Source: Candidatus Elulimicrobium sp. (GTDB lineage Bacteria; Patescibacteriota; Minisyncoccia; Phycocordibacterales; UBA918). From it: a stretch of 64,000 bases of DNA. The notes below the pieces were generated by a model. The model was not told the origin of the DNA, did no database searches, and saw nothing but the letters and a program-made list of their open reading frames with translations. The DNA lies in the NCBI GenBank assembly GCA_020720815.1, contig DYNY01000004.1, positions 1,783-65,782 on the forward strand. The letters run 5' to 3'. Positions 1 to 44,456 of this stretch are shown piece by piece. The stretch's first letter is position 1, and each line of letters opens with the position of its first letter. Both the position numbers and the translations under genes were made by a program.

Positions 1-37
1 TATTGTGTTGCGTAACAATAGTGTTGTATATTACAAT

Positions 38-1535: not shown

Positions 1536-2337
1536 GCTTTAGGTAATCAAAATGTACTGGTTTTGCTTGAATATCACGATTTAAGGATTTTATATTGATT
1601 TCATCACCAACAACTGGTATCTCAAGCTCAAAAACCTCACCAGTTTTTGGTCCACTTCCTCCTTGAATGCTTGTGACTCCGTCAGTTGCGTGGCTCACAA
1701 CATCGTCGAGTGTTTCCTCGTGTTCAAGCTCGACAACCACAATATGTTTGTCTACTTTTGGTTGAATTGTGTGAGCGACACGCATGAGAAATGCTAGCTG
1801 ATCTTTTGACCGTTTGTCAACACTTTCGGGTGTTTCTAAAACATCAACACCACCCTGCTTCCAATGCTGAGTAGCTGTGCTTCCATGCGGAACTGATTGT
1901 TTTAGACTTGATAGTAATTCCCTAAAAGCCGGTGCGTAAGCGGGCTCATTGTGGGAGATTGGTTGAGATTCTGAATTGAGTATATCCGTACTCCTAACTC
2001 GATACTGATCCTCTCGTTCTTTTGGGTCGTCCCAAACAGTAAATCCGCGGTCTATTAAATAATTTTTGACGATTTGCGCAGAGTCTCGTGTACGTTTTCT
2101 TGGGCTGTAAACGACACAAACAACGTCCTCATCTTTGTTGAGTCTTTGAGAAATATTTTCAGCCGATGCCTCAATCTCCTTGATACCTTGTTCAGTTAGA
2201 TCAATGGTGTCATCATCAGGTATGCCTTTTAATTGTTCATTATACGGAGTGTGCCCATGACGAACACGAAATACTTTTATATTTTGCCAAGACGGCTTTT
2301 CGTTTGATTCTATCCTGCTATTGGGAAGTTGTTCCAT
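1510..2337 (-). CDS. Histidine phosphatase superfamily protein (phosphoglycerate-mutase-like N-terminal domain plus an uncharacterised C-terminal domain)
   Basis: 275 aa. RHG motif (VFRVRHGHTPYN) near the N-terminus and an SPRKRTRDSAQ segment typical of the PGAM family. Overlaps the downstream kinase gene by 26 nt. Confidence 0.55.
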   Translation of the reverse strand: MEQLPNSRIESNEKPSWQNIKVFRVRHGHTPYNEQLKGIPDDDTIDLTEQGIKEIEASAENISQRLNKDEDVVCVVYSPRKRTRDSAQIVKNYLIDRGFTVWDDPKEREDQYRVRSTDILNSESQPISHNEPAYAPAFRELLSSLKQSVPHGSTATQHWKQGGVDVLETPESVDKRSKDQLAFLMRVAHTIQPKVDKHIVVVELEHEETLDDVVSHATDGVTSIQGGSGPKTGEVFELEIPVVGDEINIKSLNRDIQAKPVHFDYLKRDFKHDSD

Positions 2338-2338
2338 A

Positions 2339-2536
2339 TTATTTTAATAATTCCTCCATTGGAACGCCTAACGATTTTGCGATTTTTTGAATTGTCTGAA
2401 CGCTTGGTTTTGTAACTACACCACCCTCAATTTTTGTAAGGGTAGAGTATTTGATATTGGCTTTTTTCGCCAAGTCGTCTTGCGTTAAACCCTGTTTTGT
2501 TCGCACTCGTTTTATGTTCTGTGATATAGTTGCCAT
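2339..2536 (-). CDS. XRE-family helix-turn-helix transcriptional regulator
   Basis: 65 aa. The segment QGLTQDDLAKKANIKYSTLTKIEGG is a classic Cro/C1 HTH. The stop lies 1 nt from the phosphatase start. Confidence 0.75.
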   Translation of the reverse strand: MATISQNIKRVRTKQGLTQDDLAKKANIKYSTLTKIEGGVVTKPSVQTIQKIAKSLGVPMEELLK

Positions 2537-2621
2537 AGTATGCTACTTTTGATAGTATAGAAATATGAGTCATCACTTTCTTTGCTCACAAAACAAGCAT
2601 AGCAAAAATAGTGATATTTTT

Positions 2622-2742
2622 CAAATAACGGCGAAGCAAGACCAAAAATTTCCTTTCCATTTCTTTTTCCGCTTCGCGGTGGAGGGGTGGGGGGAGGAGA
2701 CGCGAGAAAAATGCAAGGAAATTTTTTGGTTTTTGCACACGC
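2622..2742. repeat. Structured ~120-nt repeat, copy 2. It is degenerate: the outer stem is eroded while the inner stem and G-rich loop are retained.
   Basis: Aligns with copy 1 (ggcgaagcaa.accaaaaa..cctttcc...catttcttt..cgc.t.gcgg..ggggt.ggggggag). The inner stem carries compensatory substitutions relative to copy 1. Confidence 0.6.
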
Positions 2743-2867
2743 GAGTCCGCGAGCGTGTCCGAGGCGCATTGGTTCGCATCACCACGCAATCGGAGCGTAC
2801 GAGGCAGTTTCAAGCCACCACGCGCTCCGCGCGTGCGAAGTGGGTTCGAGCAAAGGTTAATACATCA

Positions 2868-2983
2868 CCGCAGAAAGAAACTTCCGAATCCGAAAGGTGG
2901 GAAGAAGCCCGCGCCGAAGGCGCGGGAGTGGGCAAAAGAGCCCGTCGCTTCGCGACGAATTGGGACGGGACGGGTGTGGCGAA
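2868..2983. repeat. 116-bp inverted repeat, left copy (IR-L), GC-rich
   Basis: Exact reverse complement of 4430-4545. Imperfect similarity continues for about 16 more bp (2984-3000 vs 4413-4429). Confidence 0.9.
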
Positions 2984-3022
2984 ATGCGCGAATTTGTCTC
3001 TTGTTTCGTATCTAAAAGCAAT

Positions 3023-4675
3023 ATGAATATCAAACCAAAATATTTTCTATACGCGCGAAAATCGTCGGAAGATGACGACCGACAAGTGATGTCTATTGAG
3101 GCACAGCTTTTTGAACTGCGAGAATTGGCGCGTAAAGAAAGTCTTGAAATTCTTGAGGAATTTCAAGAGTCGAAAAGCGCAAAGACACCGGGGCGCGAGG
3201 TGTTCGGTGAAATGTTCGCGAAAATTGAGAAGTTAGATGGTGTTGGCATATTGGCGTGGCATCCCGACCGCCTCGCACGTAACAGTATTGACGGTGGACG
3301 AGTAATTTACGCCGTAGACACTCGCAAGGTTGTGTCTTTGCGCTTTCCGACATTTTGGTTTGAACCAACCCCGCAAGGGCTCTTTATGTTGCAAGTGGCG
3401 TTCGGGCAATCTAAATATTACTCGGATAATCTATCTGACAATATCAAGCGCGGCATCCGCCAAAAATTGCGACGAGGCGAATGGTTGAATTTAGCTCCCT
3501 TTGGCTACACCAATAATCCGAAGGTGAGAAATATTGAGCCTCATCCGACAAATGCTCGCGTGGTGAAGTTAGCTTTTCAAGAATACGCCAAAGGGTCGTA
3601 TACTTTTGTTTCGCTCGCGCAATTTTTAGCGGACTTGGGCGTGGTGACTCGCAACAAAACGCCACTTGCCAAAGTTTCCATCAAACGGCTTTTGACACAT
3701 CGGGCGTATCTTGGTTTCGTCAAACATGGTGACGAATGGTTTGATGGAAACTTTGAGCCAATTATTTCTCCGCAATTGTTTGAAGCCGTGCAGAAAGTAT
3801 TGCAAACGAAAGACAGGCCGCGCAAAAGGAAAATCAAGCATGATTTTCCTTTCACTGGACTTTTTCGATGTGGCGAGTGTGGCAGTATGATTTCCGCGCA
3901 GTGGGCGACTGGAAAATCTGGTGGTCGCTATCGGTATTATCGGTGCTCGAAAAAGCGCGGCCACTGTTCGCAAGCGTATGTGCAGGAAAGTGAACTTACG
4001 CGGCAAATCTGTGCACGGCTTCAAACAATCTCGCTTTGCGATCGCTATACCGACTGGATGTTGGACAAAGTGAAAATGTGGGAGCGCGAGGAAATTGGAG
4101 CGTCGCAAAGCGAGGTTCAAAATCTTTCTGATGGAATCAAAGCGAACGAGGAGCGCATGGAAAAACTGCTCTCGGCGTATCTTGATGGCGATGTACCGAA
4201 AGAGGTTTATCTCAAACGAAAAGATGTTCTCATGCGCTCTCTCGCCGCTTTGAAGGAAAAAATGAAAGATTTTGAACGCGGAAGAAATAATTGGGTCGAA
4301 CCCTTGCGGAAATGGATTTTAGATACGAAACAAGCCAATTTTTTGTCCTCCTCCTCTGATTTGTACCAAATCAAGTCGTTCGTCCAAAAAATCGGAACGA
4401 ACCCTCTGGTTCGTGACAAATCCGCCCAGTTCGCCACACCCGTCCCGTCCCAATTCGTCGCGAAGCGACGGGCTCTTTTGCCCACTCCCGCGCCTTCGGC
4501 GCGGGCTTCTTCCCACCTTTCGGATTCGGAAGTTTCTTTCTGCGGAGAGAGGGGGATTCGAACCCCCGATTGGGTTTCCCCAATACTACCTTTCCAAGGT
4601 AGCGCGTTCAACCACTCTGCCATCTCTCCATTATTATTTTACTTCAATAAATGTTACTTTAAATTAAATATTTAA
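3023..4675 (+). CDS. Large serine recombinase (resolvase/invertase catalytic domain, recombinase domain, zinc ribbon, coiled coil)
   Basis: N-terminal YARKSSEDDDRQVMSIEAQ serine-recombinase catalytic motif; zinc ribbon CGECG...CSKKRGHC; recombinase domain. Start chosen at ATG 3023 (MNIKPKYF). There is no stop until 4675, so the reading frame runs through IR-R and tRNA-Ser. The C-terminal ~80 aa are probably not biologically meaningful. Confidence 0.8.
   Translation: MNIKPKYFLYARKSSEDDDRQVMSIEAQLFELRELARKESLEILEEFQESKSAKTPGREVFGEMFAKIEKLDGVGILAWHPDRLARNSIDGGRVIYAVDTRKVVSLRFPTFWFEPTPQGLFMLQVAFGQSKYYSDNLSDNIKRGIRQKLRRGEWLNLAPFGYTNNPKVRNIEPHPTNARVVKLAFQEYAKGSYTFVSLAQFLADLGVVTRNKTPLAKVSIKRLLTHRAYLGFVKHGDEWFDGNFEPIISPQLFEAVQKVLQTKDRPRKRKIKHDFPFTGLFRCGECGSMISAQWATGKSGGRYRYYRCSKKRGHCSQAYVQESELTRQICARLQTISLCDRYTDWMLDKVKMWEREEIGASQSEVQNLSDGIKANEERMEKLLSAYLDGDVPKEVYLKRKDVLMRSLAALKEKMKDFERGRNNWVEPLRKWILDTKQANFLSSSSDLYQIKSFVQKIGTNPLVRDKSAQFATPVPSQFVAKRRALLPTPAPSARASSHLSDSEVSFCGERGIRTPDWVSPILPFQGSAFNHSAISPLLFYFNKCYFKLNI
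4430..4545. repeat. 116-bp inverted repeat, right copy (IR-R)
   Basis: Exact reverse complement of 2868-2983. Its right end overlaps the 3' end of tRNA-Ser by 3 nt. Confidence 0.9.
4543..4629 (-). tRNA. tRNA-Ser (anticodon GGA), type II with a long variable arm
   Basis: Reverse complement reads GGAGAGA..CTACCTTGGAAAGGTAG..GGGGGTTCGAATCCCCC..TCTCTCC-G. Acceptor 7 bp, anticodon loop TTGGAAA, T-arm GGGGG/CCCCC, discriminator G. CCA is not encoded. Confidence 0.85.
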
Positions 4676-25024: not shown

Positions 25025-25699
25025 TTAAATACCAAATTGTACCGATGAATTTGTTGTAGTTTCTCCTTCAATGGTAAAATCTACTTCTGGATTAACTACA
25101 GTAGCAATTAGATCTTTGAACTCCTCATATGTTTTATAATTCATTCTTTCACCGTTTAAAAAGAAAGTTGGTGTACCTGTAATTCCCATTTCTCGCGCCT
25201 CTCTTCCGCTATCTCTGACTTTATCTCTAATCAAGGAAGAGTTCATTTGACGTTTGAATTTTTCTGTATCTAGACCAAGCTCGGTGGCGTACTGAATAAA
25301 CAAAACGCTTGGATTTTTGCTACGTGACCAGGTATCTTGATTTTCAAACAACTTATCATGGTAAGCAAAGAAGGCATCTTGTTGAGCAGCCGCTTCAGCC
25401 GCTTTGGCAGACGATTCGGCTTGAGGATGAATTGGTAATGGGTAATGTTTATATTCCAAACTTAGAGAATCACCATATTCAGCCATTATTTCTTGCAAAG
25501 CTAATTGGAATGAAGTACAAGCTGGGCATTGGAAATCGCTGTATTCTACTAACTTAACTGCTGCCTCTGAGTTACCCTTTACATGTGAAGAAAAAGTTAT
25601 ATTTTCATTATTTTTAGCACCGACAATACTAGAGTACCAAATCGATCCACCAATTAATACCAGAGCTAAGATTCCTACAACTGTCCATGGATTTTTCAT
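25025..25699 (-). CDS. DsbA-like thioredoxin-fold thiol:disulfide oxidoreductase, membrane-anchored
   Basis: CPAC active site (DFQCPACTSF), N-terminal TM, 224 aa. Confidence 0.75.
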   Translation of the reverse strand: MKNPWTVVGILALVLIGGSIWYSSIVGAKNNENITFSSHVKGNSEAAVKLVEYSDFQCPACTSFQLALQEIMAEYGDSLSLEYKHYPLPIHPQAESSAKAAEAAAQQDAFFAYHDKLFENQDTWSRSKNPSVLFIQYATELGLDTEKFKRQMNSSLIRDKVRDSGREAREMGITGTPTFFLNGERMNYKTYEEFKDLIATVVNPEVDFTIEGETTTNSSVQFGI

Positions 25700-25752
25700 A
25701 TAAGCTATAGTGTAACATAATCACTTTTTATGACCAATTCATCTACTTTATC

Positions 25753-25820
25753 ACTCCGAGAAGATAAAGTCTTTTGCGGAATACAAATATTCGGGCAGTG
25801 AGTGACACAAAAGGCATTAT
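25753..25820. promoter_or_regulatory. 15-bp perfect inverted repeat (actccgagaagataa ... ttatcttctcggagt) in a divergent intergenic region
   Basis: The arms are separated by 38 nt. Located between the dsbA-like gene (minus) and the methyltransferase gene (plus). Confidence 0.35.
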
Positions 25821-25897
25821 CTTCTCGGAGTAACTAGCTACTAAAATTTGTCTTGTTATTTTTTTGCAAATGTGTTCTAATTTGCTAACTTTTCACT

Positions 25898-26635
25898 ATG
25901 ACTTTTAAACCTAATTTTACACGTAAAAAAAAGCGCAAGGCACATGGGGCCACCTTTTGGGATAATGAATACAAAAACCCGGAACACTTAAAGCTTTCAA
26001 CCGAACAAAGTGAGGACTTGGAGAAATTTACTCGTTTTGTTATCCGTCAAAAAAAAGAGTATGCCTTATCACCCGGTGCAGAAGTACTCGACGTTGGTTG
26101 TGGTAACGGTCGTAATCTTGTTTACCTAGCTAATAATTTTGGTGTTTCCGGCACTGGGTATGATATTTCTAAGGCCGCTATCGCTCAAGCAATAGTCGCT
26201 TCAAAGGGTCTCTCCCTTTCCTACTCTGCCCGCAGTATCGCTGGTGCACTAACGATACCAGATAATTCTCAGTTCCTCGTTCTCGATATGATGACTTCAC
26301 ATTTTTTAACCAAAGAGGAACGTTTAGGATTGCGCGAAGAAATCTACCGAACCCTTAAACCTGGCGGATTACTTTTTATGAAGACTTTTCTGAAAGATGA
26401 AGATTTGCACACTAGACGTCTACTTGTCGAATTCCCCGGCAAAGAAGACGGTAGCTATATACACCCGGTCATGGGTGTAGCTGAATATGTCTACAGCGAG
26501 GAAGAACTAATTAATTTTCTAAGTGAGCGTTTTATTATCCACAAAATTTATCGCTCACACAAACACGCCTTTCGTGGCCAAGCTAGAAAACGTCGTACTA
26601 TCACGATTTATGCCGAAAAGGATCCCTATCTGTAG
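25898..26635 (+). CDS. SAM-dependent methyltransferase (class I)
   Basis: VLDVGCGNGRN motif I and LKPGGLLF motif. Confidence 0.7.
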   Translation: MTFKPNFTRKKKRKAHGATFWDNEYKNPEHLKLSTEQSEDLEKFTRFVIRQKKEYALSPGAEVLDVGCGNGRNLVYLANNFGVSGTGYDISKAAIAQAIVASKGLSLSYSARSIAGALTIPDNSQFLVLDMMTSHFLTKEERLGLREEIYRTLKPGGLLFMKTFLKDEDLHTRRLLVEFPGKEDGSYIHPVMGVAEYVYSEEELINFLSERFIIHKIYRSHKHAFRGQARKRRTITIYAEKDPYL

Positions 26636-26640
26636 TTAGT

Positions 26641-27375
26641 CTACGGGCACTTAAAGGTAGCCCTACACTCATCTTGACCAGATCCAGGAGCAACTTTCTC
26701 GCACAATTCACATTGAGACGAAAGTCCAGTTTCTTCATAGGTCGTACCATATTCCATATTTACATTCATAATGTCAGCAACATCCCGAAATAAGATATCA
26801 GTTGGTGGTTCAAAAATACTACCATCAACATTCTCCCACGGGTTACATTCATAAGTTACTGGTTGATCTACCGGCACCGGTCCCTCAGCTTCAGGTGCTT
26901 GGCCGGAAGCTTGGGCGGAGATCATACTAGTCATATCGTACTTCATTCCATACTTCTCTCCTTCAATCACTGACCAGTTGTACATCATATTATCCCGCAG
27001 AATTATAGATGAGACACTACCAGCTCCAGCTTCCGGTAGGATAAAATCACCGCGCATCATACCACCACTGGTAAAATAGGTGCCTATTACCGGTTCTTCT
27101 TCTATTGCAGATTCGTCTTTTTTTATTCCTGTCAATGGTCTATAGCTTATAGAACACTCTAGATCTTCGGCCTTGGCTAATATTTCTTGAAGTGAACCTG
27201 TCCCAGAACTTGGTTCCGCTAAAACTTTTTTGTTTGGTGTTGTTATATCAGAATTAACTTCAAAATTATCAGCTGATGATTTAATAGGGGCTTTGCTGTC
27301 ATTCATAAATAGATATACTAAAGCGATTACTACTACCCCCATTCCTACTAGACTAACTACAACGGTTTTTTTCAT
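26641..27375 (-). CDS. Hypothetical secreted protein with a Cys-rich C-terminus
   Basis: N-terminal TM/signal segment, 244 aa. C-terminal CELCEK...CRATFKCP. Confidence 0.35.
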   Translation of the reverse strand: MKKTVVVSLVGMGVVVIALVYLFMNDSKAPIKSSADNFEVNSDITTPNKKVLAEPSSGTGSLQEILAKAEDLECSISYRPLTGIKKDESAIEEEPVIGTYFTSGGMMRGDFILPEAGAGSVSSIILRDNMMYNWSVIEGEKYGMKYDMTSMISAQASGQAPEAEGPVPVDQPVTYECNPWENVDGSIFEPPTDILFRDVADIMNVNMEYGTTYEETGLSSQCELCEKVAPGSGQDECRATFKCP

Positions 27376-27482
27376 AAAAATTAATAATTAACTTTTATCA
27401 CATATAGCATAATAAATATAACTCAAAATCAAACGATTACTTGTTACTACCACAATTTTTCCATTTTAAACACACAACCTCA

Positions 27483-27905
27483 CTAGAGACAACTCCTACC
27501 TGTCAAAACTTCCATAGCAGTCGGAATTGCCCCGGCTTTTATTTCATCCACTCTAGCCTGGCCAAATTTATCAACAAAACATTTCTCTTGCTCGGGAGTT
27601 AATTTACTTGGTAAAATATTAGGATTAATTCCAACTAGTTCTAAGGCATTCTTTTGCCCTTCAGTTAGACCACCGCCAGCACTGGCGGTAGCCCCAATTC
27701 CTGTATCGGCACTAGTTGCGGTTGAAATTGGTGTTAAGTTAGTATCCCCATTTGCCTCTTTTTTTTCTGTATCACTGCTTGGCGACTGAAAAATAAATGG
27801 CTTAATGTTATACGGGTCAGCTATCCAAAAATAAACTAAGGCTAGAAGTATACAGAAGAAAATAACTCCTAATGAAACAAAAAATATAGTAAAAAAAATT
27901 TTCAT
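27483..27905 (-). CDS. Hypothetical membrane-anchored protein
   Basis: N-terminal TM segment, 140 aa. Confidence 0.3.
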   Translation of the reverse strand: MKIFFTIFFVSLGVIFFCILLALVYFWIADPYNIKPFIFQSPSSDTEKKEANGDTNLTPISTATSADTGIGATASAGGGLTEGQKNALELVGINPNILPSKLTPEQEKCFVDKFGQARVDEIKAGAIPTAMEVLTGRSCL

Positions 27906-27968
27906 GGCCAGTACTAAATTACGGCTATTAATGATGAGTACTTTCTGTCATTTTACCACAGTCCATAC

Positions 27969-29885
27969 TTAACTTTTCTGCCACAACATTCTTAAACCAT
28001 TTGATACCACCAAAAGCGTTCCACCTTCATGCCCAATAACACCTAAAGGTAGCGGCAATTTCCAAAGTATAGTTACCACCACCATCAATGCCAAAATACC
28101 GATAGCAAAAACTAGGTTTTGCTTAATAATACTATTAGCTTGCATTGAGAGCTTGCGGGCTCGTAGTAAAGCTCCTAAATCATCTGAAAGCAGAGCCACG
28201 TCAGCCGCCTCAAGGGCCACGTCACTACCAGCCGTCCCCATTGCCACCCCCACGTGCGAGGTAGCCAAAGCCGCCGCATCATTTACTCCATCACCGACAA
28301 ATGATACCTTGCCTTCACTACGTAGTTTATTAATTATCGTCACCTTATCAGTAGGCATTAGGTCAGCAAAAATATCCCCCGGCGCAATTCCTATTTCTTT
28401 TCCCATCTCCTCAGCTACAGTTTTATGATCACCAGTCAACATAACGATTCTTTTGATACCTCGCTGTCTAAGCTCGGCAATGGTAGCTTTGGCTGAGGCT
28501 CTAACCGTATCGGATATACCAATCACGCCATACACCACCTCACTACCGACCACAATCGCTGTCTTTCCTTCAGCTTCTAAGTCTTGCAAAGCTTGCTCCG
28601 TTTTATCATCTACATGGACACCGGTCTCGTCTAACATTTTACGATTACCAGCAAAATACCGTCGCCCCTCTTGGGTCACGTAAACTCCTTTACCGGGAAC
28701 CGCTTCTGCTCTTTCTACCGTCGCTGGTGATATACCCATCTCAGCGGCATGATTAAGAATACTCTTAGCAAGTGGGTGCTCTGAATTTGCTTCCAGGGTG
28801 GCAGCGACCTGCATCAGCTGGTGCTCACTCATACTGATAGCCACCACCCTACTTACTTTCATTTTACCTTCAGTCAAGGTACCAGTTTTATCAAAGGCCA
28901 CTATATCTATATTGGCAAAGGTTTCGAGCGCTGCCCCACCCTTAAAGAGCATTCCCCGTTTGGCTGAAGCCGCTAAAGCAGAAAGTATCGCCGCGGGCAC
29001 ACTAATCACAATTGCACATGGACTGGCTACCACCAAAAGGGTGGCTGCCTTATAGAAAGCTTCAGCATACGGTAGACCAAGCAGAATAAAACCACCCAAG
29101 ACAATTAAAGTCCCAAGTAAAACTAGAATCGTATATCTCTCACCAAACCAATCACTAAAACTTTCACTCGGAGAACGTTTAGCCTGGGCCTCGGTTACCA
29201 AACGAATCATTTGGGCCAAAGTAGAATGACTGGACGTTTTAGTTACCTCAACCCGAAGGACACCGTGCCCATTTACTGTTCCCGCAAAAACATTATCCCC
29301 CGGATCTTTATCCACCGGCACTGATTCCCCTGTCATGGATGACTGATCCACCGCACTAATACCACTCAAAATAATCCCATCCACAGGTACTTTTTCTCCT
29401 GGTTTTATCACAACAACCTGCCCAATCTGAAGTGACTCGACTGATACGCGCTCGATTCCCCCGGCTCCGTTCTCCAGATTAGCCTCATCTGGTCTAAGCT
29501 TCATCAAGGCTACCACCGCTCGCTTGGTATTACCCATCGCATACTCTTCCAAAGTCCCAGCCAAACTGAAGAGGAAAAGCAGAATCGCTCCATCCCGTGC
29601 TTCTCCCACCCCCGCCGCCGCGAGCGCGGCCAAGACCATTAGTAAGTCTATATCAAGCTTTTTTTGTAATAGATTTCCTAGTGCCCCCTTGGCTGCCGGT
29701 ATTCCCCCGGCCAGATAGGCTATAACAAAGGCCATTGCTATATACAAAGCCGAACCTTGAGTAAACTGAAAATATACTCCGATTAACAACCCAATCAAAG
29801 TGATAGCGGTTAAAATACCATTTATGTGCAAAGATTTTCGCTCCCCTTCAAGTTCCTCCATCAAAACTTCAGCTGGATTTTTCAT
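27969..29885 (-). CDS. Heavy-metal-translocating P1B-type ATPase
   Basis: DKTGTLT phosphorylation motif, SPC motif in a TM helix (VASPCAIVIS), GDGVNDAAAL hinge, 638 aa. No N-terminal metal-binding domain. Confidence 0.85.
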   Translation of the reverse strand: MKNPAEVLMEELEGERKSLHINGILTAITLIGLLIGVYFQFTQGSALYIAMAFVIAYLAGGIPAAKGALGNLLQKKLDIDLLMVLAALAAAGVGEARDGAILLFLFSLAGTLEEYAMGNTKRAVVALMKLRPDEANLENGAGGIERVSVESLQIGQVVVIKPGEKVPVDGIILSGISAVDQSSMTGESVPVDKDPGDNVFAGTVNGHGVLRVEVTKTSSHSTLAQMIRLVTEAQAKRSPSESFSDWFGERYTILVLLGTLIVLGGFILLGLPYAEAFYKAATLLVVASPCAIVISVPAAILSALAASAKRGMLFKGGAALETFANIDIVAFDKTGTLTEGKMKVSRVVAISMSEHQLMQVAATLEANSEHPLAKSILNHAAEMGISPATVERAEAVPGKGVYVTQEGRRYFAGNRKMLDETGVHVDDKTEQALQDLEAEGKTAIVVGSEVVYGVIGISDTVRASAKATIAELRQRGIKRIVMLTGDHKTVAEEMGKEIGIAPGDIFADLMPTDKVTIINKLRSEGKVSFVGDGVNDAAALATSHVGVAMGTAGSDVALEAADVALLSDDLGALLRARKLSMQANSIIKQNLVFAIGILALMVVVTILWKLPLPLGVIGHEGGTLLVVSNGLRMLWQKS

Positions 29886-35067: not shown

Positions 35068-35583
35068 CTAACCCAACCCTACGTCTAACATCATCATCAC
35101 CACAAAACCCGCTAGCGCCCCCATGGTAGCCAAGTCGGTATGCCCACCCCGCTGAGATTCCGGTATCAACTCCTCAATCACCACAAACATCATCGCTCCC
35201 GCCGCAAAGTTGAGCGCATAAGGTAATACCGGCGCCGCTACCATTATCAAAGCTGCTCCCGCAACCGCTGCAACAGGCTCTACTATGCCGGAAAATTGCC
35301 CATACATAAAACTTTTCATACGACTAAAGCCTTCTCTTCGTAGTGGTACCGCAATAGCTGTCCCTTCCGGAAAATTTTGGATTCCAATACCAATAGCGAG
35401 AGCTATTGCACCAGCTAAAGTAGCATTTTCAAGATTTAAATAAGCCGCGCCAAAAGCCACTCCAATCGCTAAACCTTCTGGAATATTATGTAAAGTAATG
35501 GCAGAAACCAAAAGCACACTGTGAACCGTAATCCGCAGGACTCTGGTGGGTTTCTCAAAAGAGAAAGAGTTCGGCGACGGCAA
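35068..35583 (-). pseudogene. ZIP-family metal transporter, apparently N-terminally truncated (C-terminal ~170 aa only)
   Basis: [11 protein letters not shown] and [14 protein letters not shown] signature motifs are present, but the roughly 80-90 aa holding the first three TM helices are missing. The upstream sequence is a GC-rich foreign fragment. Confidence 0.5.
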
Positions 35584-36053
35584 TCCGTGAACGGCCGTGC
35601 ATGAGCCTAGACTCAGGAGTAAGTATAGTAAAAAGTTGTCTGATTTTCATATAAAAAGAAATCAGGGTTACCCACGCTGTGGATAACCCTGAAATTTTTT
35701 ACCGCGAATTCAATAATCAAAAGAAAGGATTCAAAAGACTCAAGAATTCAAGGCACGAGGATCACTTCTGCGGAACGAAAGCCGAGGCAGACCAGCAGTG
35801 GGCACAGGCATCGTCGACCCAGTAGCCACCGAACCTGACCTGACCGTCGTTGAAGCAGAAGAACGGGGCGAGCGAGAAGACGCCATCAGCGTCCGGAGCA
35901 TATTCGTCGCCAGCGCAGTCGATCCAGAGATCGTCATAGTGCTGGAGCCGTTCCGGATGCGTCAGGAGCATGATCCCGATGGCGAATGCCCCGAGGTCGA
36001 ACTCGTTCCCGGCGATACATGCAAATTACAACAGAAAATATCAGAAAACCCAA

Positions 36054-36095
36054 CTAGGACTTGAACCGACTAAATGGCTTTAAATAAAGATATTT
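36054..36095. repeat. Degenerate third copy of the tRNA-Gln-T-arm-like repeat (ctaggacttgaacc...)
   Basis: About 65% identical to the repeats at 39001-39056 and 43240-43295, in the same orientation. Confidence 0.35.
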
Positions 36096-38018: not shown

Positions 38019-38522
38019 TCATTTCCCAATTTTCTTTTGTATGTCCACCTTACTCAGATCGTCAAAATACTGCCTCGTAATTTGTTTATACAAAGAAGAA
38101 GCTCGTTTACCGTCCGGAAAAAGAACTTTCCTAAACTTTTGTTCTTCGATTAAAAAATCGACAAGCATTTTGTAGTCACCATCACCAGACACTAAAACAA
38201 TCTGATCGAATTTCTCTTGCTTATAGAGTCGCTTCATGACTGAAAAGATAATATCTGAATCGACATTCCCTTTCTTAGTTCCTAGCATCGCTGAATTATG
38301 TTCACGAAACACTAGAATGAAACCGGATGCTTGTATTTCTTCATATAGCTATTGATAGGTTTCACCATTTTGAACATACCCAAGATAGTAATAAGCTCTG
38401 TCAACTTGATATAAATCACGTAAGTAAATACGAAAACGCGACAAATCAACCTTCCAAGGATTCGCTGATTTTGTAGTACCCATGAACAAATTTTGTCCAT
38501 CAATGTACGCAATATTACTCAT
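38019..38522 (-). pseudogene. NYN/LabA-like domain protein interrupted by an in-frame TAG
   Basis: MSNIAYIDGQNLF...GYVQNGETYQ-TAG-LYEEIQASGFILVF...VSGDGDY. The two ORFs are in the same frame and the conserved NYN motifs run straight across the stop. Confidence 0.55.
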
Positions 38523-38550
38523 TGCGCTATTATAGCAGATAGCATTTTGT

Positions 38551-38592
38551 TGCTGGCTGTCTGGTACGATATTAGAACTTTTTTGACTAATG
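38551..38592. repeat. Direct repeat (copy b) flanking the NYN pseudogene
   Basis: See 37890-37930. Confidence 0.5.
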
Positions 38593-39000
38593 TATAAATT
38601 CATTGTATTGAAACAATGTTTTAGATGTACTAAAACCGTTCCTTCCAATGAAGCGGACGCCATTTCCCAAAAGAGAGTCGTAATGTCGAAAGTAAGAATC
38701 TCTTCCCTTCATGTCGAGCTTTGCATAGTGCTTGGCGATATCATTCGTCAGAAGCTTCGCTACCCTGTTCTAAAAACCGAATGTTGGACCTTTGAGTCAC
38801 ATGAGGTATTACACAAACCAACCGTCTGGTTCAAGTATCCGAATGGCAAAGTGGAAGACCTCCACTTTATTAGAAAACCCGGAGTGAACCAGCTTGAACC
38901 AATGCCCTGTTACAACACTTTGCCTCCGGAGAAAATAAGATTCCGGTGACACTCTCGACCCACCAACACCTTGCTTCGGCAAGGTGTTTGCTTTTTATAT

Positions 39001-39056
39001 CAAGGACTCGAACCAAATTTATGTTGCTAAATATAGCTGAAATTACTTTGCTGACT
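39001..39056. repeat. Direct repeat, left copy: 45-bp identical core plus imperfect flanks. Contains caaggactcgaacc, identical to the T-arm/3' region of tRNA-Gln.
   Basis: Core ggactcgaaccaaatttatgttgctaaatatagctgaaattactt is identical to 43243-43287. Confidence 0.8.
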
Positions 39057-39290
39057 GTCGTGGTCTTAAAACCTACGTGATGAGACACCGTAAGGCTTTC
39101 TTATGACCCCCTCTACTCCTTATGTGAGGCGTCTCGATCTCTAGCATCCTGTGCTTATATCGCTAAACTAGATTTTGTAGTTATAACAGAGGGCAGTATG
39201 TCACTCTAATGTCTTTACTTGGTCGTGAGGAAAAAGACGATTCCAATGCCAACTACTATAGCAACGCGCTAATAATTAACTTCGTACAAG

Positions 39291-40883
39291 CTATTCGGTT
39301 ACAGTGAACTCAAACATCATGCCCGCTTCAAGGTGTTCAGCGATATGACAATGCGCCATCCATTCCCCTGGATTGGTAGTATCAAGGAGAATATCAACGT
39401 ACTGTCCCGCTGGCACCATCACCGTATCTTTCCAAACTAAATTGTCGTTCATCGAGCCGTTTTCATTTACCACAAGGAATCGTTGACCGTGGAAGTGAAT
39501 TGGGTGTTGCATTGGATGGGCAGATTTTTCGTCATTCGTAATACGCACTTTTACTTTATCTCCTGCCTTGAAGTTCCACGCAATATCCGTATTTACTTTT
39601 CCAGTTTCGGTATCAACAATTTTCCACTTCGTCATGTCTTTAGTCGCCATCTGGTTCATCATGGCCATATCAGTGTCTTCCCATTCAATACCGTCAGGAC
39701 TAGGTGACCCCATCATCATACCTCCCATCATTGAACCATCCGGCATCATGTGCCCGCCCATGCCAGAAGACATACTACCCATCATGTCGATAGTGAGTCT
39801 AAGCTCTTTGTCGACTGGCTTATTGAGGTACTCACTATACGAGTCAAAACTTGCCTTCGCTATATCATTCGTCCGAAGTGTGCCGAAGATGTCACCATGA
39901 TATGGGGAAACAATATCGTTTGAGACAACAACGTTACCGAGGGCATAGGTTTTGTCGGGAGTCTTATGTTCGATAGCATATATGCCTTCATCAGCAAAAA
40001 GTACCTCTACCACCACTCGTTCAGATGGACCGAGGATAACCGAATCTTTCCACTCCTCACGTTCAGTTGCTCCAGCATCCCCACCGACTAACTTGAGCTT
40101 CGTACCTTTGATGCCAAAGTTAAACGGTCGCGCATTCGCCGCATTCGTGAGATAGAAACGAATGACTTCGCCCTTGGTGGCGTTGAGCTGGTAGTTTGTC
40201 TCGCCATTGACGAGCATAACGTTACCATAGCGACCCATGAGGGTGTGATCTGCCTCCTCTTTGCTCAAGTTGATCTTTCCATTCTCGATAAGGACATCGT
40301 CGAGAATAAGCGGCACTTCACGATTCACCTCGTTCCAGTATTTTTCGTCAGTAGCAACAACGAGGTAGTTACCGTACATGCCAAGTTCTTGTTGATAGTC
40401 CTCACGAACGTGCGGATGGTACCAATACATACCAGCATCAGGGAATTTCAATTTGTATGAGAATGTCTCTCCTGGCTTCATTTCCTCCTGTGTGGACTGT
40501 GAACCATCAAACTCATTGTCCATACGCACACCATGCGAATGCAGGAGTGTGTTCATATCAGTGCCATTTTTGAAGTTGATGGTCACCTCTGCACCCTGTG
40601 GCACTTTAATTAAAGGTCCCGGTATCGAACCGTTATATGCGAGCATCTTGTACTTCACGCCGTTAATATCTTTTTCAACGTAACTAGCAGTGAGATCGTA
40701 CGAGTCACCGTTTGTAAGGACGATAACTTCAGAAGTTTTTGCTGGTTCAATTTTGGTTGATGCAGTAGTAGTGTCTTGCGCACTTTCATTACGATAAAGC
40801 ACAATCCCAGCAATGACGATGATGATACCGAGTGCAACTGCAAGAGTTGTTTTATTCATAGTGTAATTCAATTTTATCTCCAT
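39291..40883 (-). CDS. Multicopper oxidase (CopA/CueO/laccase-like) with a Met-rich segment
   Basis: HSHGV, WYHPH, HPIHFHGQRF and HCHIAEHLEAGMM copper-ligand motifs. The Met-rich region MMGSMSSGMGGHMMPDGSMMGGMMMG is also present. N-terminal TM/signal. Confidence 0.85.
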   Translation of the reverse strand: MEIKLNYTMNKTTLAVALGIIIVIAGIVLYRNESAQDTTTASTKIEPAKTSEVIVLTNGDSYDLTASYVEKDINGVKYKMLAYNGSIPGPLIKVPQGAEVTINFKNGTDMNTLLHSHGVRMDNEFDGSQSTQEEMKPGETFSYKLKFPDAGMYWYHPHVREDYQQELGMYGNYLVVATDEKYWNEVNREVPLILDDVLIENGKINLSKEEADHTLMGRYGNVMLVNGETNYQLNATKGEVIRFYLTNAANARPFNFGIKGTKLKLVGGDAGATEREEWKDSVILGPSERVVVEVLFADEGIYAIEHKTPDKTYALGNVVVSNDIVSPYHGDIFGTLRTNDIAKASFDSYSEYLNKPVDKELRLTIDMMGSMSSGMGGHMMPDGSMMGGMMMGSPSPDGIEWEDTDMAMMNQMATKDMTKWKIVDTETGKVNTDIAWNFKAGDKVKVRITNDEKSAHPMQHPIHFHGQRFLVVNENGSMNDNLVWKDTVMVPAGQYVDILLDTTNPGEWMAHCHIAEHLEAGMMFEFTVTE

Positions 40884-41292
40884 CTTTCATTTGATAATTC
40901 TCAAGCTCGTTGTTCGGTTCTCCGTTGACCGTCATAGTCACACTCTGTCCGAACTCTCGGAAATCTTTTCCCCACACGGTGAAGAATTTACCAAGACGTG
41001 TGTCATCTTTAGTGACCCTCGCCGGATACTCGAGGTGAACAATCGGTACGTCATCGTGTGTATGCATCGGCTGGTGTACCGCACCTGAGAGGCCGATATT
41101 TTGAGGGATAGTAACTTTTTCACCCTTCACATATATCTCGAGTTGCGGGTGTGTGTGCATACCCTTCAGTGAGAGTACCTCTCCGTCAGCCGATGTGGGG
41201 GATGCTGATTGATTTGCTTTTCCCCACCAGATCATACTGATGGCAAAAACCACTGTCACCGCAATGACGATGGTCATTGTATGCTTTTTCAT
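40852..41292 (-). CDS. Small secreted His-rich protein (putative metal-binding)
   Basis: Signal/TM segment, HTHPQ and HQPMHTHDD motifs. Overlaps the MCO gene by 32 nt. Confidence 0.35.
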   Translation of the reverse strand: MKKHTMTIVIAVTVVFAISMIWWGKANQSASPTSADGEVLSLKGMHTHPQLEIYVKGEKVTIPQNIGLSGAVHQPMHTHDDVPIVHLEYPARVTKDDTRLGKFFTVWGKDFREFGQSVTMTVNGEPNNELENYQMKDGDKIELHYE

Positions 41293-41816
41293 ATATCACA
41301 AGTTATGGGCTGAATAATGCGTCGTAATAGAAAGTATGTTGCGTACAAAAGTGCCAGAACTCCCACAATGCCAAGTTCCTGTCCTTGAAACGGCAATATG
41401 CTCAAGATCCCAATACCACCAACCGTTGATAGAAGTGCGGTAAGTACAAGTGAACCACAGGCGGCACAGCCGACCCCGAACATTCCCAAGAACACGCCAA
41501 TACCGCTTATAGCAATCCCGCCCCCGCTCAACATCGCTTTTTGTCTCCGATAGAGATAAACGATGAGAGCCACATTCACACCAATCAAAAAAGACGTGGC
41601 TGTTGTCGTTATGGCAGAGAGTGCCGTGAAGTTGGTAGTGATTGAGGTAAGGAGAGTTAGTGGCAAAGTAAATTTATCTCCGAGTGAAGCAGTGTCGCTA
41701 AGCCAAACTAATCGGATGAGTGTAAGGTTGGGAAGCAAAACTGCAAACGCGAATATGACAAATACGACGACAAGTGCGAGGAGAATGTATGGGTACTTTT
41801 GTAGAATAACAGACAT
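41289..41816 (-). CDS. Polytopic membrane protein with an intramembrane CxxC (candidate redox partner or metal-handling protein)
   Basis: About 5 TM helices with GVGCAACGS inside a TM helix. Start overlaps the upstream gene by 4 nt. Confidence 0.35.
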   Translation of the reverse strand: MSVILQKYPYILLALVVVFVIFAFAVLLPNLTLIRLVWLSDTASLGDKFTLPLTLLTSITTNFTALSAITTTATSFLIGVNVALIVYLYRRQKAMLSGGGIAISGIGVFLGMFGVGCAACGSLVLTALLSTVGGIGILSILPFQGQELGIVGVLALLYATYFLLRRIIQPITCDI

Positions 41817-41819
41817 GGT

Positions 41820-42584
41820 TTACGAATCTTTTAACGCTGTTTCTATAAGTTGCTTCACTGCTTCATATGGCTGTGCGCCATTTATAGGGAACTTGGTTCC
41901 ATCGGGTGCGACAAAGATACTCCATGGCGTTCCTCGTCCTCCGGTAGCCACTGCGTTAGCGAGATCATCTGCCACATGTTCTGCATACGTACCACTGCTT
42001 AGACATTCGTTGAATGTTTTGACATTGATGCCAACGAATTCGGCAATTTTTGGTAATTCAGCAAGATCAAGTCGGTCATTAGAGGGTGTGATCTCGTAGA
42101 GTCGGTCTGCATATTTCCAAAATGCATCGTTGCCACCTTGTGCACCAGCACACTCAAGCGCTTCTGCTTCTTTCCGAGCTTTAGAATGCAGTTGGTCGAG
42201 TGGAAAGTGGCGGTACACCCATGCAACTTTCCCGGTATCTCCATACTCATCCATTACTTGCTTCATAGTTTCATGGAGACGTTTGCAGAATGGGCATTCG
42301 GTATCAGAGTACTCGACGACCTTTATTGGAGCGTCAGAATTTCCTCGGACATGGTCATCGCCAGACACTACTTTTATATTTGCGAGTGCTTTGTTTGAAT
42401 CTTCAGCAATCTGTGCGGTCGGCACTACTGCAGTTGGTGCACTGGGAATGGTGTTGTTTTTAAGACCAAACAAAACTGCTCCGGCAATAAGTGTTCCAGC
42501 GATGACTATTGCTATAGGTATAGAGAATGCCTGGACGGTCGATTTTTGAACCGATTGAATAGGTTCACTATGTTCTTTATTCAT
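41820..42584 (-). CDS. DsbA-family thioredoxin-fold oxidoreductase, membrane-anchored
   Basis: CPFC active site (DTECPFCKRLHE), N-terminal TM, 254 aa. Confidence 0.75.
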   Translation of the reverse strand: MNKEHSEPIQSVQKSTVQAFSIPIAIVIAGTLIAGAVLFGLKNNTIPSAPTAVVPTAQIAEDSNKALANIKVVSGDDHVRGNSDAPIKVVEYSDTECPFCKRLHETMKQVMDEYGDTGKVAWVYRHFPLDQLHSKARKEAEALECAGAQGGNDAFWKYADRLYEITPSNDRLDLAELPKIAEFVGINVKTFNECLSSGTYAEHVADDLANAVATGGRGTPWSIFVAPDGTKFPINGAQPYEAVKQLIETALKDS

Positions 42585-42656
42585 GTATTTAGAGGGTTAG
42601 ACAAATAACGTCGATACAGCAAAAATTGGTGTTACAACAACACCCTAGTGGCGACG

Positions 42657-43097
42657 TTAGTATGTCTTAGAATGGAGAATGCCTCGAGCGAATGCTAATC
42701 GAAGCGGATTGTATATGCTGACGTTTGGATGTTCTCGTGCATATTGTTTATAGCGGAGTGCAAAAACGTTTAAGTTGAGCTTTGGTATAGCAAAGAAATC
42801 TGAGAAGACAAAAGCCACAGCTACCCCAATAAAGAGAAGTGCGAGAAAGTCTTGGAAGCTTTGTGGAATACCGACGAGCGTACTTTTCCAAAGTTCCATG
42901 TGATCGTTTACTCCAACATCGCAACATGAGTTTAAGATTGCTGAAGAAGCTTTATGGCTCGAATGAGTACCCATATCCGCATGAGCTGGTGTTGCGTGAA
43001 TAAAGCTGATACAAAGGAAACCAACAATAAGCGAAGACAAGATTGTCCCACTCACAATAGTTAGTATCTGAGATGTAAATACTGACAGGAACTTCAT
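42657..43097 (-). CDS. Hypothetical membrane protein
   Basis: 146 aa with 2-3 TM helices and a CC pair (NSCCDVG). Confidence 0.3.
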   Translation of the reverse strand: MKFLSVFTSQILTIVSGTILSSLIVGFLCISFIHATPAHADMGTHSSHKASSAILNSCCDVGVNDHMELWKSTLVGIPQSFQDFLALLFIGVAVAFVFSDFFAIPKLNLNVFALRYKQYAREHPNVSIYNPLRLAFARGILHSKTY

Positions 43098-43159
43098 AGG
43101 TTGATTAATTTTAACAGAAAAAACTCGCAGTGTGTAGTCTCTTCATACAAACAAAAATC

Positions 43160-43190
43160 ACCCTTTCGGGTGATTTTCGTTCTGGATACT
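43160..43190. terminator. Hairpin aaaatcaccc-tttc-gggtgatttt with flanking T-tracts
   Basis: Perfect 10-bp stem with a T-run on both sides. It could terminate in either direction. Confidence 0.5.
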
Positions 43191-43239
43191 GCTCTCAGCA
43201 GGTATGCAATAGCGGAATAGATCCTATGTGATTTTAGAC

Positions 43240-43295
43240 CTAGGACTCGAACCAAATTTATGTTGCTAAATATAGCTGAAATTACTTGGCTGGCC
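43240..43295. repeat. Direct repeat, right copy
   Basis: See 39001-39056. Confidence 0.8.
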
Positions 43296-43385
43296 GACTC
43301 GGGCTAGAACCGCACAATGCCAAACCATGCTTGACGATTTTAGTATATTTTCAAATTCAATTTCGACGCGTCTCGTGCACTAAAA

Positions 43386-43865
43386 TTATGTAATGATTAT
43401 ATGCCCTGGATTATTGGGGTCTACGTCAATATTTATGTCACGATCAAGATTATTTATTTCAATTGTGTGACTAATATTTAAAGTTAAATATCCTTGAAAA
43501 ATGACTCGGTTGGGTATTTGTATATCTATATGAAACTTCCTTGGGTCTCTACTAACTACTGATGTATGGTGACCGACATATCCATCCTTTTTTAACTTAA
43601 ATTCAATAACTGTTTTGTCATCTTCATACATATCTATATCTACGACTTCAGGATTCTGATCCCATCGACAGACAAACTCTAAGTTCTCACTAGGAGAGGT
43701 TAGAGTAAGTACCGGCAGAAGACCATTCGGTTTTCTGTCACTCTCAGGAAAAGCATTAATTTCAAAAAGGTCGTCACGGTACTCCACTTCAAGATTAATA
43801 TCAAAAATCTTATCCGTAAAAATTCTATCTTTTCTGTTATTAAAAGTTAAATACATCATAAACAC
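43386..43865 (-). CDS. Hypothetical protein
   Basis: 159 aa, AT-rich (native-like composition). Confidence 0.35.
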   Translation of the reverse strand: MFMMYLTFNNRKDRIFTDKIFDINLEVEYRDDLFEINAFPESDRKPNGLLPVLTLTSPSENLEFVCRWDQNPEVVDIDMYEDDKTVIEFKLKKDGYVGHHTSVVSRDPRKFHIDIQIPNRVIFQGYLTLNISHTIEINNLDRDINIDVDPNNPGHIIIT

Positions 43866-43882
43866 CTAATGCGAGTAAATTA

Positions 43883-44293
43883 CTATTCTGACTTCTTAAC
43901 AGGGTCAGCACCGTCTCCACCCTTACCGTAGTCCCACAAATAAGTCCCGTCAGGGAGTCGAGTATTTGGAACACCTAAAATTTCAAGAGGACTCCTTCCT
44001 CCCCGTCCTCCTCTATCAGCCTGCCCCGCTTCACCACCTTCTCCTCCCATCGCAAAAGCATTATCACCAACAACCTCAGCACTACCGCCATCTCCTCCTT
44101 TACCTCCAGGACCAGCCCCGCCGCCAATCCCGCCGACAGCAACTGAATTATTACCGTTCACTTTTGCATCACCACCCTTACCTCCATTATGAGTAGGTTT
44201 AATAGTCTTACCTATGCCAAATACATGATAAAGGATTAGACCACCACCTATTGTTATCACTAATCCGAGTAAAATTTCTACTAGATATTCCAT
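43883..44293 (-). CDS. Gly-rich low-complexity membrane-anchored protein
   Basis: N-terminal TM segment, then GGKGGDGG / GGEGGEAG repeats. Confidence 0.35.
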   Translation of the reverse strand: MEYLVEILLGLVITIGGGLILYHVFGIGKTIKPTHNGGKGGDAKVNGNNSVAVGGIGGGAGPGGKGGDGGSAEVVGDNAFAMGGEGGEAGQADRGGRGGRSPLEILGVPNTRLPDGTYLWDYGKGGDGADPVKKSE

Positions 44294-44385
44294 AAGTTTA
44301 TTATATCTCTTTCTGTACTTTTGCTAAGTCTATGCGAAATTAGATAAGCATTACATTAACGCTCTTCGTGCTACGTACGAGTTTG

Positions 44386-44456
44386 CTGGGGTACAAGGAC
44401 TCGAACCTCGATAGGCGGTACCAGAAACCGCAGTCCTACCATTAGACGATACCCCA
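44386..44456 (-). tRNA. tRNA-Gln (anticodon CUG)
   Basis: Reverse complement reads TGGGGTA-TC-GTCT-AATGGTA-GGAC-T-GCGGT-TTCTGGT-ACCGC-CTAT-CGAGG-TTCGAGT-CCTTG-TACCCCA-G. All stems pair. Confidence 0.85.

Follow-up and report, generated by a model that had tools for sequence, protein, structure and literature searches.

A five-gene copper and thiol-redox cassette between tRNA-Gln-derived repeats, a candidate mobile island of Patescibacteria

The window analyzed in this report is a 64,000-nt stretch of contig DYNY01000004.1 from Candidatus Elulimicrobium sp. (Patescibacteriota), and the cassette under study is the piece of it at positions 39291-43097, which is filled by five co-oriented open reading frames (ORFs) on the minus strand (Table 1). 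In order of transcription they encode a small membrane protein with two hydrophobic segments (P5), a DsbA-like oxidoreductase with a CPFC active site, a polytopic membrane protein named here for its CAAC motif, a His-rich protein (HIS), and a multicopper oxidase (MCO). Hydropathy gives the MCO, HIS, and DsbA a single N-terminal hydrophobic anchor each. No Pfam or NCBIfam family was matched by P5, CAAC, or HIS. The first-pass annotation had listed the same five co-oriented genes, and the ORFs, the Pfam matches, and the motifs described below bear it out product by product, including the Met-rich loop of the MCO and the location of the CAAC motif within a hydrophobic stretch. It had also described the genes as linked by overlaps of 4 to 32 nt, which is correct for two junctions (CAAC/HIS, 4 nt; HIS/MCO, 8 nt, or 32 nt if the longest ORF, starting at 40883, is taken in place of the start at 40859 given by gene callers). 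The other two junctions have gaps, of 3 nt between DsbA and CAAC and of 72 nt between P5 and DsbA.

Table 1. Coordinates of the cassette, its flanks, and other features (window positions unless a locus is given)
Feature	Position	Strand	Basis
P5, 146 aa, first cassette gene	42657-43097	-	ORF list, hydropathy, family alignment A7
DsbA-like CPFC thiol:disulfide oxidoreductase, membrane-anchored, 254 aa	41820-42584	-	Pfam, nearest PDB chains
CAAC protein, polytopic membrane, 175 aa	41289-41816	-	Alignment A1, AF2 model
HIS, His-rich membrane-anchored protein, 146 aa	40852-41292	-	Alignment A2, AF2 model
MCO, three-domain CueO-like multicopper oxidase	39291-40859 (longest ORF to 40883)	-	Pfam, NCBIfam, motifs, PDB relatives
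Promoter-like site TACACA-17-TAAAAT with TG, 11 nt 5' of the P5 ATG	43108-43136	-	Consensus match only
EL, ~90-nt non-coding, CTATTCC-N6-GCATACCTGCTGAGAGCAGTA (RNA: CUAUUCC-N6-GCAUACCUGCUGAGAGCAGUA), then A-tract, hairpin, T-tract terminator	43134-43226	-	blastn, alignment A8
Direct repeat copy 1, upstream; 46-nt exact core 43242-43287; tRNA-Gln 3' remnant ~43287-43313	43232-43305		
Direct repeat copy 2, downstream; core 39003-39048; more degenerate tRNA-Gln 3' remnant ~39048-39075	38993-39066		
Intact tRNA-Gln(ctg), probable original integration target, 1.3 kb from repeat copy 1	44385-44456	-	
Second DsbA, CPAC	25025-25699		
Secreted Cys-rich 244-aa protein, family recurring in islands	26641-27375		
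Secreted 140-aa protein with two Cys	Within second metal and disulfide cluster		
CopA-like P-type ATPase without HMA domain	27969-29885		
ZIP transporter ORF, its match confined to the C-terminal half of the model	35068-35583		
Stand-alone ectodomain family	L028:10291-11190, L048:4088-5107, L062:4317-5216, L082:2292-3251, L086:4495-5472		
Ectodomain fused behind CAAC-like domain	L034:7074-8519, L049:4730-6055, L059:3626-5287		

The MCO has three cupredoxin domains, matched by the Pfam models Cu-oxidase_3 (7.8e-28), Cu-oxidase (9.8e-16), and Cu-oxidase_2 (3.2e-37), and all four copper-ligand motifs are present (HSH107, HPH148, HPIHFH452, and HCHIAEHLEAGM503, read with the patterns HxH, HxH, HxxHxH, and HCHxxxHxxxxM). 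Its Met-rich insert, with 15 Met in residues 355-404, is of the type associated with cuprous oxidase activity. The best NCBIfam match is CueO (NF008205); since the score of 144.6 bits falls under the cutoff of 525, we call the protein CueO-like, within the CueO/laccase group, rather than a CueO orthologue. There is no twin-arginine motif, and because the single Cys is the T1 copper ligand, the protein needs no disulfide. The MCO most likely works at the cell surface, oxidizing Cu(I) to Cu(II). Literature searches on multicopper oxidases in Parcubacteria and on DsbA in the candidate phyla radiation found nothing relevant.

The DsbA-like protein scores 84.4 bits with Thioredoxin_4 (cutoff, 23.2; 1.4e-23) and 54.3 bits with DSBA (cutoff, 25.6; 1.9e-14). 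Its CPFC is at residues 97-100, and the nearest solved chains are 4pwp and 4pwo (named DsbA) and 3eu3 (named BdbD). In the P5 family an exposed Cys, C59, is invariant, with a largely conserved His about seven residues later; the C-terminal region consists of the second transmembrane (TM) segment and then a conserved cytoplasmic tail (AFxxGILxxK). The HIS product contains 8 His, and H46, H48, H77, H79, H86, and E88 are invariant in its family. The AlphaFold2 (AF2) model of HIS (predicted local distance difference test [pLDDT], 87.6) has an anchor helix and a beta-grasp-like domain, the predicted ectodomain, whose fold matches are weak (ThiS/SUMO types, best E 0.026), and a sequence search of the Protein Data Bank (PDB) with profile A2 found no solved relative. 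A HIS domain is fused behind a DsbA domain in three loci. HIS is probably an accessory that binds metal outside the cell.

The CAAC protein has C117-A-A-C120 in a hydrophobic stretch and a third Cys, C173, near its C terminus. These are the only Cys conserved in alignment A1, where all members have them; GxGCAxCG, P142, G145, and C173 are invariant, E147, PN29-30, and TNFT61-64 nearly so, and no extracytoplasmic Cys pair is seen. The third hydrophobic region, 41 residues long, is interrupted by a Gly-rich break that holds the CxxC; in the AF2 model (overall pLDDT, 69) the helix is broken at residues 113-120 as well, at low confidence. Positive charge is found in the loop that follows TM2 (RRQK) and in the RR-containing C-terminal tail, and the PFQGQE loop is acidic; in the topology predicted from this pattern, the RRQK loop and the tail are cytoplasmic and the PFQGQE loop is outside. 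Three homologues (L034, L049, and L059), whose N-terminal domain matches the clean A1 profile (5e-16 to 2e-18) in a CPxC variant, run from the CAAC-like domain through a CxxC tail and one extra TM segment into a Cys-rich ectodomain; because stand-alone versions of this ectodomain have an N-in anchor, the tail in the fusions must be cytoplasmic. A C-terminal SAM-methyltransferase domain in one CAAC homologue points the same way, and C173 is probably cytoplasmic.

Homologues of CAAC form 69 clusters in a word-indexed search, and when the family is searched by profile at E ≤ 1e-3, it comprises 1903 representatives of clusters at 50% identity. None of 43 family members matched the Pfam models for DsbB (PF02600), VKOR (PF07884), CcdA/DsbD_2, MerC, or MerT at E ≤ 1, the comparison with VKOR being a Pfam scan only, with no profile-profile test. 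By hhalign, CAAC reached a probability of 0.2% with the islands' own DsbB proteins and of 15.6%, over 11 aligned columns, with verified MerC sequences. No solved structure resembles it by sequence (profile A1 against the PDB) or by fold. CAAC represents a new protein family.

The anchored ectodomain family, of ~300 aa with the motifs YRPCCGNS...DCNHG...GGCGV, is found in the same islands as CAAC. A CAAC-DsbA fusion at L028 and several long candidate CAAC proteins were rejected, the clean A1 profile leaving only the three fusions named above and the other proteins belonging to the separate ectodomain family. A distant CAAC member (31% identity) lies at L007/L008:6001-6528 between two YcaO genes and nitroreductases, with no DsbA close by; the family may thus act outside the copper island as well.

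Probable integration site and distribution

Two 74-nt direct repeats, 86% identical and with an exact core of 46 nt (0 expected by chance), bracket exactly the five genes. Both copies are headed by a degenerate tRNA-Gln 3' end, made up of the T-arm and the acceptor 3' strand, and two unannotated ORFs separate the upstream copy from the intact tRNA-Gln. This combination of repeats and remnants is the trace expected of successive site-specific integrations at a tRNA gene, and it supports the earlier view that the cassette was acquired. Close relatives have the same genes at sites that are not syntenic, next to tRNA genes and a serine recombinase. A scan of metagenome and viral contigs for the exact repeat core gave no match. 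We considered the 4,253-nt contig L001 as an excised circle and rejected it: it is as long as the unique segment with 30 nt from either repeat added, and because an assembly with k=31 (the value of k is assumed) would break at the repeats, the contig is not evidence of a circle.

Between the tRNA-Gln and the upstream remnant, positions 43386-44293 (minus strand) encode a Gly-rich 136-aa protein with an N-terminal anchor and a low-GC (0.33) 159-aa protein; the pair looks like a second, separate insertion at the same tRNA-Gln. On the other side, a stretch of 57% GC at 35798-36067, whose minus-strand reading is a start-less foreign protein fragment (...NEFDLGAFAIGIMLLTHPERLQHYDDLWIDCAGDEY...), is adjoined by a T-loop-like GGTTCAAGTCCTAG motif at 36054-36067. 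This motif may represent another att remnant, the third, at the outer limit of a row of inserted elements.

The non-coding element EL lies between the upstream repeat and the start of P5, with hairpin arms at 43150-43181. Its DNA is 76-89% identical, by blastn, to that of loci in distant Patescibacteria whose proteins share only ~20-45% identity, and 5 of its 16 predicted pairs covary. Rfam gave no match at EL and found only three tRNAs in the window. The covariance model R1 finds EL in 13 of 86 searched sources, the window included; the sources besides the window are L012, L014, L022, L023, L036, L037, L049, L061, L068, L076, L083, and L084, and the EL core is present on 58 metagenome contigs (L093-L150). 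Of the 49 testable contigs, 31 have a tRNA-Gln (ttg or ctg) in the 600 nt upstream of EL and in the same orientation; the usual distance from tRNA-Gln to EL is 100-200 nt. The cargo 3' of EL varies: 15 contigs have a serine recombinase there, on the opposite strand, and 11 have copper genes. The adjacent tRNA-Gln together with the variable cargo argues that the tRNA-Gln/EL unit is a recurrent integration site in the lineage. EL itself could be a component of the att site, a small RNA, or a leader or terminator of the island.

The base composition of the cassette sets it apart to a limited degree. Its GC content is 0.450 (single genes, 0.410-0.458) and the window mean is 0.412; among windows of the same size its GC falls in the top 4.5% and its tetranucleotide distance in the top 0.8%. 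The z-scores for GC at third codon positions (GC3) are 1.9 for the MCO, 2.0 for HIS, 1.3 for CAAC, 0.1 for DsbA, and 0.3 for P5, and GC3 is equal or higher in several other window genes. The deviation from the window is real but modest. The composition statistics that the first-pass annotation had named as a check thus show a moderate difference, weak in GC3 for DsbA and P5; its figure of about 47-50% GC, called clearly higher, gives way to the measured 45.0% versus 41.2%.

A scan of one genome per species yielded 275 CAAC loci, and the locus counts that follow come from the best 80 of these, in which ORFs were called and clustered and recurrent families annotated, families seen in few loci being left unannotated; counts for HIS and P5 are from clean profiles. 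The metagenome-assembled genomes of the 80 loci carry Patescibacteria-type labels (Nomurabacteria, Kaiserbacteria, Wolfebacteria, Paceibacterota, Minisyncoccia, and many "Saccharibacteria") except for three proteobacterial ones. DsbA is present in 78 of the 80, and in at least 69 it is directly upstream of CAAC on the same strand (median gap, 2 nt), 68 of these 69 DsbA proteins having a CPFC active site. This bears out the earlier suggestion that the CxxC membrane protein is tied to the adjacent DsbA. P5 occurs in 50 loci (48 within 2.5 kb upstream of CAAC) and HIS in 38 (35 within 2.5 kb downstream). A CopA-type P1B ATPase is found in 38 loci and a CsoR-family repressor in 25. Fifteen loci have an MCO within 6 kb, and 14 have a large serine recombinase, which directly adjoins P5 in nine. 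DUF305 is present in 11 loci, DsbB in 10, HMA-DsbD_2 in 6, and a ferric-reductase/FNR pair in 6-8. Where a DsbA stands beside a real DsbB, its active site is CEAC in 7 of 9 cases; since CPFC pairs with CAAC and CEAC with DsbB, the same islands hold two separate redox pairs.

The conserved core of the module is P5, CPFC-DsbA, and CAAC, usually followed by HIS, and CPFC-DsbA and CAAC are a dedicated pair. Two close relatives with MCOs 82-83% identical have fuller gene sets. L090 reads recombinase, P5, DsbA, CAAC, HIS, beta-propeller, MCO, DUF7282, CopA, HMA-DsbD_2, and cupredoxin, with a tRNA-Ser at the end; L091 reads recombinase fragment, P5, DUF305, DsbA, CAAC, DsbA, DsbB, ATPase, rhodanese, MCO, DUF7282, CopA, and further genes. 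At L003/L004 the four-gene core stands alone at an unrelated site, with no MCO nearby. The link between copper and disulfide functions that had been noticed in this one cassette is thus recurrent, with homologous modules beside CopA-type ATPases, CsoR, DUF305, HMA-DsbD_2, cupredoxins, and MCOs. The module is an accessory island with variable cargo at non-syntenic sites, not a fixed locus that forms part of the core in all relatives.

Two other expectations of the first-pass annotation did not hold. It had called such a module unusual for an organism of this lifestyle; in Patescibacteria it is common, sampling of one genome per species giving 275 loci. It had also looked to a distant phylum as donor. 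More than 120 clusters of MCO homologues were found at ≥59% identity, and those with names belong to Parcubacteria, Paceibacterota, Liptonbacteria, and Minisyncoccota, with one Woesearchaeota exception; since the closest MCO homologues are also from Patescibacteria, transfer from a distant phylum is unsupported. The exception, P0377, is 64% identical and labeled Candidatus Woesearchaeota (a DPANN archaeon); either Patescibacteria and DPANN share such an MCO or the sequence was misbinned.

Candidate roles of the DsbA-CAAC pair

We give an even chance to the view that a mobile copper-homeostasis island circulates in Patescibacteria and inserts at tRNA genes, that the region is a non-autonomous copy of it placed at tRNA-Gln, and that it includes a DsbA-CAAC thiol/metal relay. 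A narrower proposal about the pair, which we hold tentatively and at an even chance or slightly less, is that by analogy CPFC-DsbA and CAAC would act as a reductive or isomerizing thiol relay beside the cuprous oxidase, possibly also handling Cu(I). All five products would be embedded in or anchored to the membrane, facing the cell outside. The MCO would turn Cu(I) into Cu(II) at the cell surface, and CAAC would most likely pass reducing equivalents between the cytoplasm and the DsbA-like ectoprotein, or else carry a thiophilic metal ion along the same route. Through this activity the pair may hold exposed cysteines in the reduced or correctly paired state when copper drives the formation of wrong disulfides, and among the cysteines so protected could be the invariant one of P5 and those of surface proteins more generally. 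The analysis shows gene content, motifs, synteny, the specificity of pairing, repeats, and the lack of homology to known partner families; we infer copper as the metal concerned in this organism, the topology, and which way electrons or metal would move. The model for such a pair is DsbC/DsbD and ScsC/ScsB of Proteobacteria. Copper is known to catalyze wrong disulfides, and Salmonella acquired the copper-induced Scs system (PMC10907172, PMC8900818, PMC3322552); the scs locus is induced by copper, ScsC and ScsB bind Cu(I), and the electrons of DsbD come from cytoplasmic thioredoxin (PMC10907172, PMC8900818).

Several observations weigh against this interpretation. Neither a recombinase nor CsoR nor CopA is found inside this copy (38993-43305), which we regard as non-autonomous because there is no recombinase between its repeats; a CopA-like ATPase is 10 kb off and a serine recombinase 35 kb off. 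In the related loci, copper genes are within 6 kb in only about half. The AF2 model of CAAC is weakest at the CxxC itself, with pLDDT <50 at residues 117-119, and given this poor confidence the mid-membrane position of the motif rests on hydropathy and charge. In place of a pair of cytoplasmic Cys the family has a single one, and it shows no homology to CcdA/DsbD_2, hhalign with the islands' HMA-DsbD_2 proteins giving a probability of 0.6%. The nearest solved relatives of the DsbA (named DsbA and BdbD) are oxidases and not reductases.

This last point leads toward an oxidizing role, and the first-pass annotation had indeed offered CAAC as a DsbB/VKOR-type reoxidant of the adjacent DsbA. The Pfam and hhalign comparisons show no homology to DsbB, nor Pfam to VKOR, and an oxidant of either type is disfavored because CAAC has a mid-membrane CxxC and a probably cytoplasmic C-terminal Cys. 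CAAC might still replace DsbB/VKOR in function, reoxidizing CPFC-DsbA for exported disulfides, those of island products included, and passing electrons to a non-quinone acceptor, possibly copper, the MCO, and finally O2. The strict adjacency of DsbA and CAAC would fit such a role. So would the closeness of the DsbA to solved chains that bear the names DsbA and BdbD, the presence in the window of genes for exported proteins whose cysteines are paired, and the finding of no DsbB in its 64 kb. Patescibacteria are generally not known to synthesize quinones or to have respiratory chains, so a route other than quinones would be needed, which also counts in favor. DsbB, however, has two periplasmic Cys pairs and sends its electrons to quinones (PMC10907172), whereas CAAC has three conserved Cys only, with no extracytoplasmic shuttle pair. 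Moreover, a real DsbB with its own CEAC-DsbA is present in the same islands (10 of 80 loci), and the CAAC pair belongs to accessory recombinase-linked islands, not to a housekeeping context. We consider the replacement quite unlikely, and very doubtful its bolder form, in which CAAC would be an undescribed membrane thiol relay that recycles DsbA in quinone-less Patescibacteria, with copper, the MCO, and O2 as electron sink instead of the quinone pool.

A role as a metal permease, the other option (for copper or mercury) that the first-pass annotation had offered, is unlikely too, if somewhat less so. By analogy, CAAC would be a MerC/MerT-like permease for Cu(I), Hg(II), or Ag(I), with CPFC-DsbA as its MerP and the ion passing to the membrane CxxC and on to the cytoplasmic Cys. 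The two share a GCAAC motif at the start of a Gly-rich membrane helix and the same logic of a membrane CxxC with a cytoplasmic C-terminal Cys (a CxxC pair in the fused subfamily), metal genes are abundant nearby, and ScsC-type thioredoxin-fold proteins bind Cu(I) tightly (PMC8900818). The similarity does not extend beyond the 11 columns aligned by hhalign, at 15.6% probability, or to a Pfam MerC or MerT match in the 43 members; among the recurrent neighbor families of the 80 loci, rarer families being unannotated, there is no MerA, MerR, or MerP, and the sole regulator is CsoR. Importing copper would also make little sense beside a copper-exporting ATPase and an extracellular cuprous oxidase. 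That the cassette serves instead to mature and metallate the MCO, with the DsbA-like protein and HIS as Sco- or PCuAC-like copper chaperones and no part in stress defense, is suggested by the co-oriented, overlapping HIS and MCO genes, the invariant His/Glu cluster of HIS, and the DsbA-HIS fusions. We find it highly improbable: an MCO lies within 6 kb in only 15 of 80 loci while the P5-DsbA-CAAC core is nearly constant, the L003/L004 core has no MCO nearby, and the MCO, with its single Cys, needs no disulfide.

Other features of the window

A second cluster of metal and disulfide genes occupies 25025-29885 and 35068-35583 (Table 1); neither DsbB nor CsoR was found in the window. Nearer the cassette and just beyond its downstream repeat, a gene with an NYN domain at 38019-38663 (minus strand) appears split into ORFs at 38349-38663 and 38019-38312 and is probably a pseudogene or a frameshift. 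On the plus strand, a putative ORF of 119 aa (38590-38998; GC3, 0.46) is followed by a terminator-like hairpin at 38965-38988, the T-run of which abuts the downstream repeat copy.

At the start of the window, a large serine recombinase of an island-associated family is encoded at 2897-4675 (plus strand) and overlaps a tRNA-Ser(gga) at 4542-4629; the first 2.5 kb are the most deviant of the window by tetranucleotide composition. Positions 1-4675 are probably another integrated element.

Significance and comparison with known systems

Three of the five cassette proteins belong to sizeable families that have no Pfam or NCBIfam model, CAAC alone counting ~1900 representatives at 50% identity, and the strict gene order with a DsbA-like enzyme in a copper island gives P5, CAAC, and HIS a testable role. 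As a dedicated membrane partner of DsbA that differs from DsbB, VKOR, and DsbD, CAAC is a concrete candidate for the handling of exported cysteines in Patescibacteria. The island also shows that metal-defense modules pass between very small genomes by way of integration sites linked to tRNA genes. Most worth following up are the protein families and the tRNA-Gln/EL site; the claim that the module is exceptional for a reduced genome fails.

If the pair is the copper-linked relay favored above, the nearest parallel is Scs (ScsC/ScsB, and with it DsbC/DsbD), likewise a copper-linked accessory locus in which an exported thioredoxin-fold CxxC protein has a dedicated membrane partner, encoded with copper export and oxidation functions and horizontally acquired (PMC10907172). 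In contrast to Scs, the membrane partner here is a protein of 175 aa with one CxxC and one further Cys and no detectable homology to DsbD, ScsB, or CcdA, and the soluble partner resembles monomeric, membrane-anchored proteins of the DsbA/BdbD type. The DsbA-DsbB, BdbD-BdbC, and DsbA-VKOR pairs share with the cassette the adjacent, co-transcribed genes for a DsbA-like and a polytopic CxxC protein in a Thioredoxin_4/DSBA context; CAAC differs from their membrane components in homology, in having no extracytoplasmic Cys pairs, and in its third, probably cytoplasmic Cys, and a true DsbB can share an island with it, together with a different, CEAC-type DsbA. The coexistence of DsbA/DsbB and DsbC/DsbD in E. 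coli parallels the two redox pairs of the islands. MerC/MerT with MerP is similar in its GCAAC in a membrane helix, its cytoplasmic C-terminal Cys, and its place in a metal-resistance island, but the motif of CAAC is in the third hydrophobic region, not the first, there is no mer context, and the likeness is at the level of the motif only.

For the cassette as a whole, CueO/CopA/CsoR systems and the mobile copper loci of Gram-positive bacteria (Staphylococcus aureus, PMC5947656) offer the same set of a Met-rich MCO, a P1B-type ATPase, and CsoR on a horizontally moving island. The MCO described here departs from them in its CueO score (144.6 versus 525 bits), its membrane anchor, and its lack of a Tat motif, and the core of P5, CPFC-DsbA, CAAC, and HIS has no counterpart there. 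What is of a known kind is the mobile copper-defense island with an accessory thiol-redox pair; what is new is its three core families, undescribed in the libraries, among them the membrane partner of DsbA.

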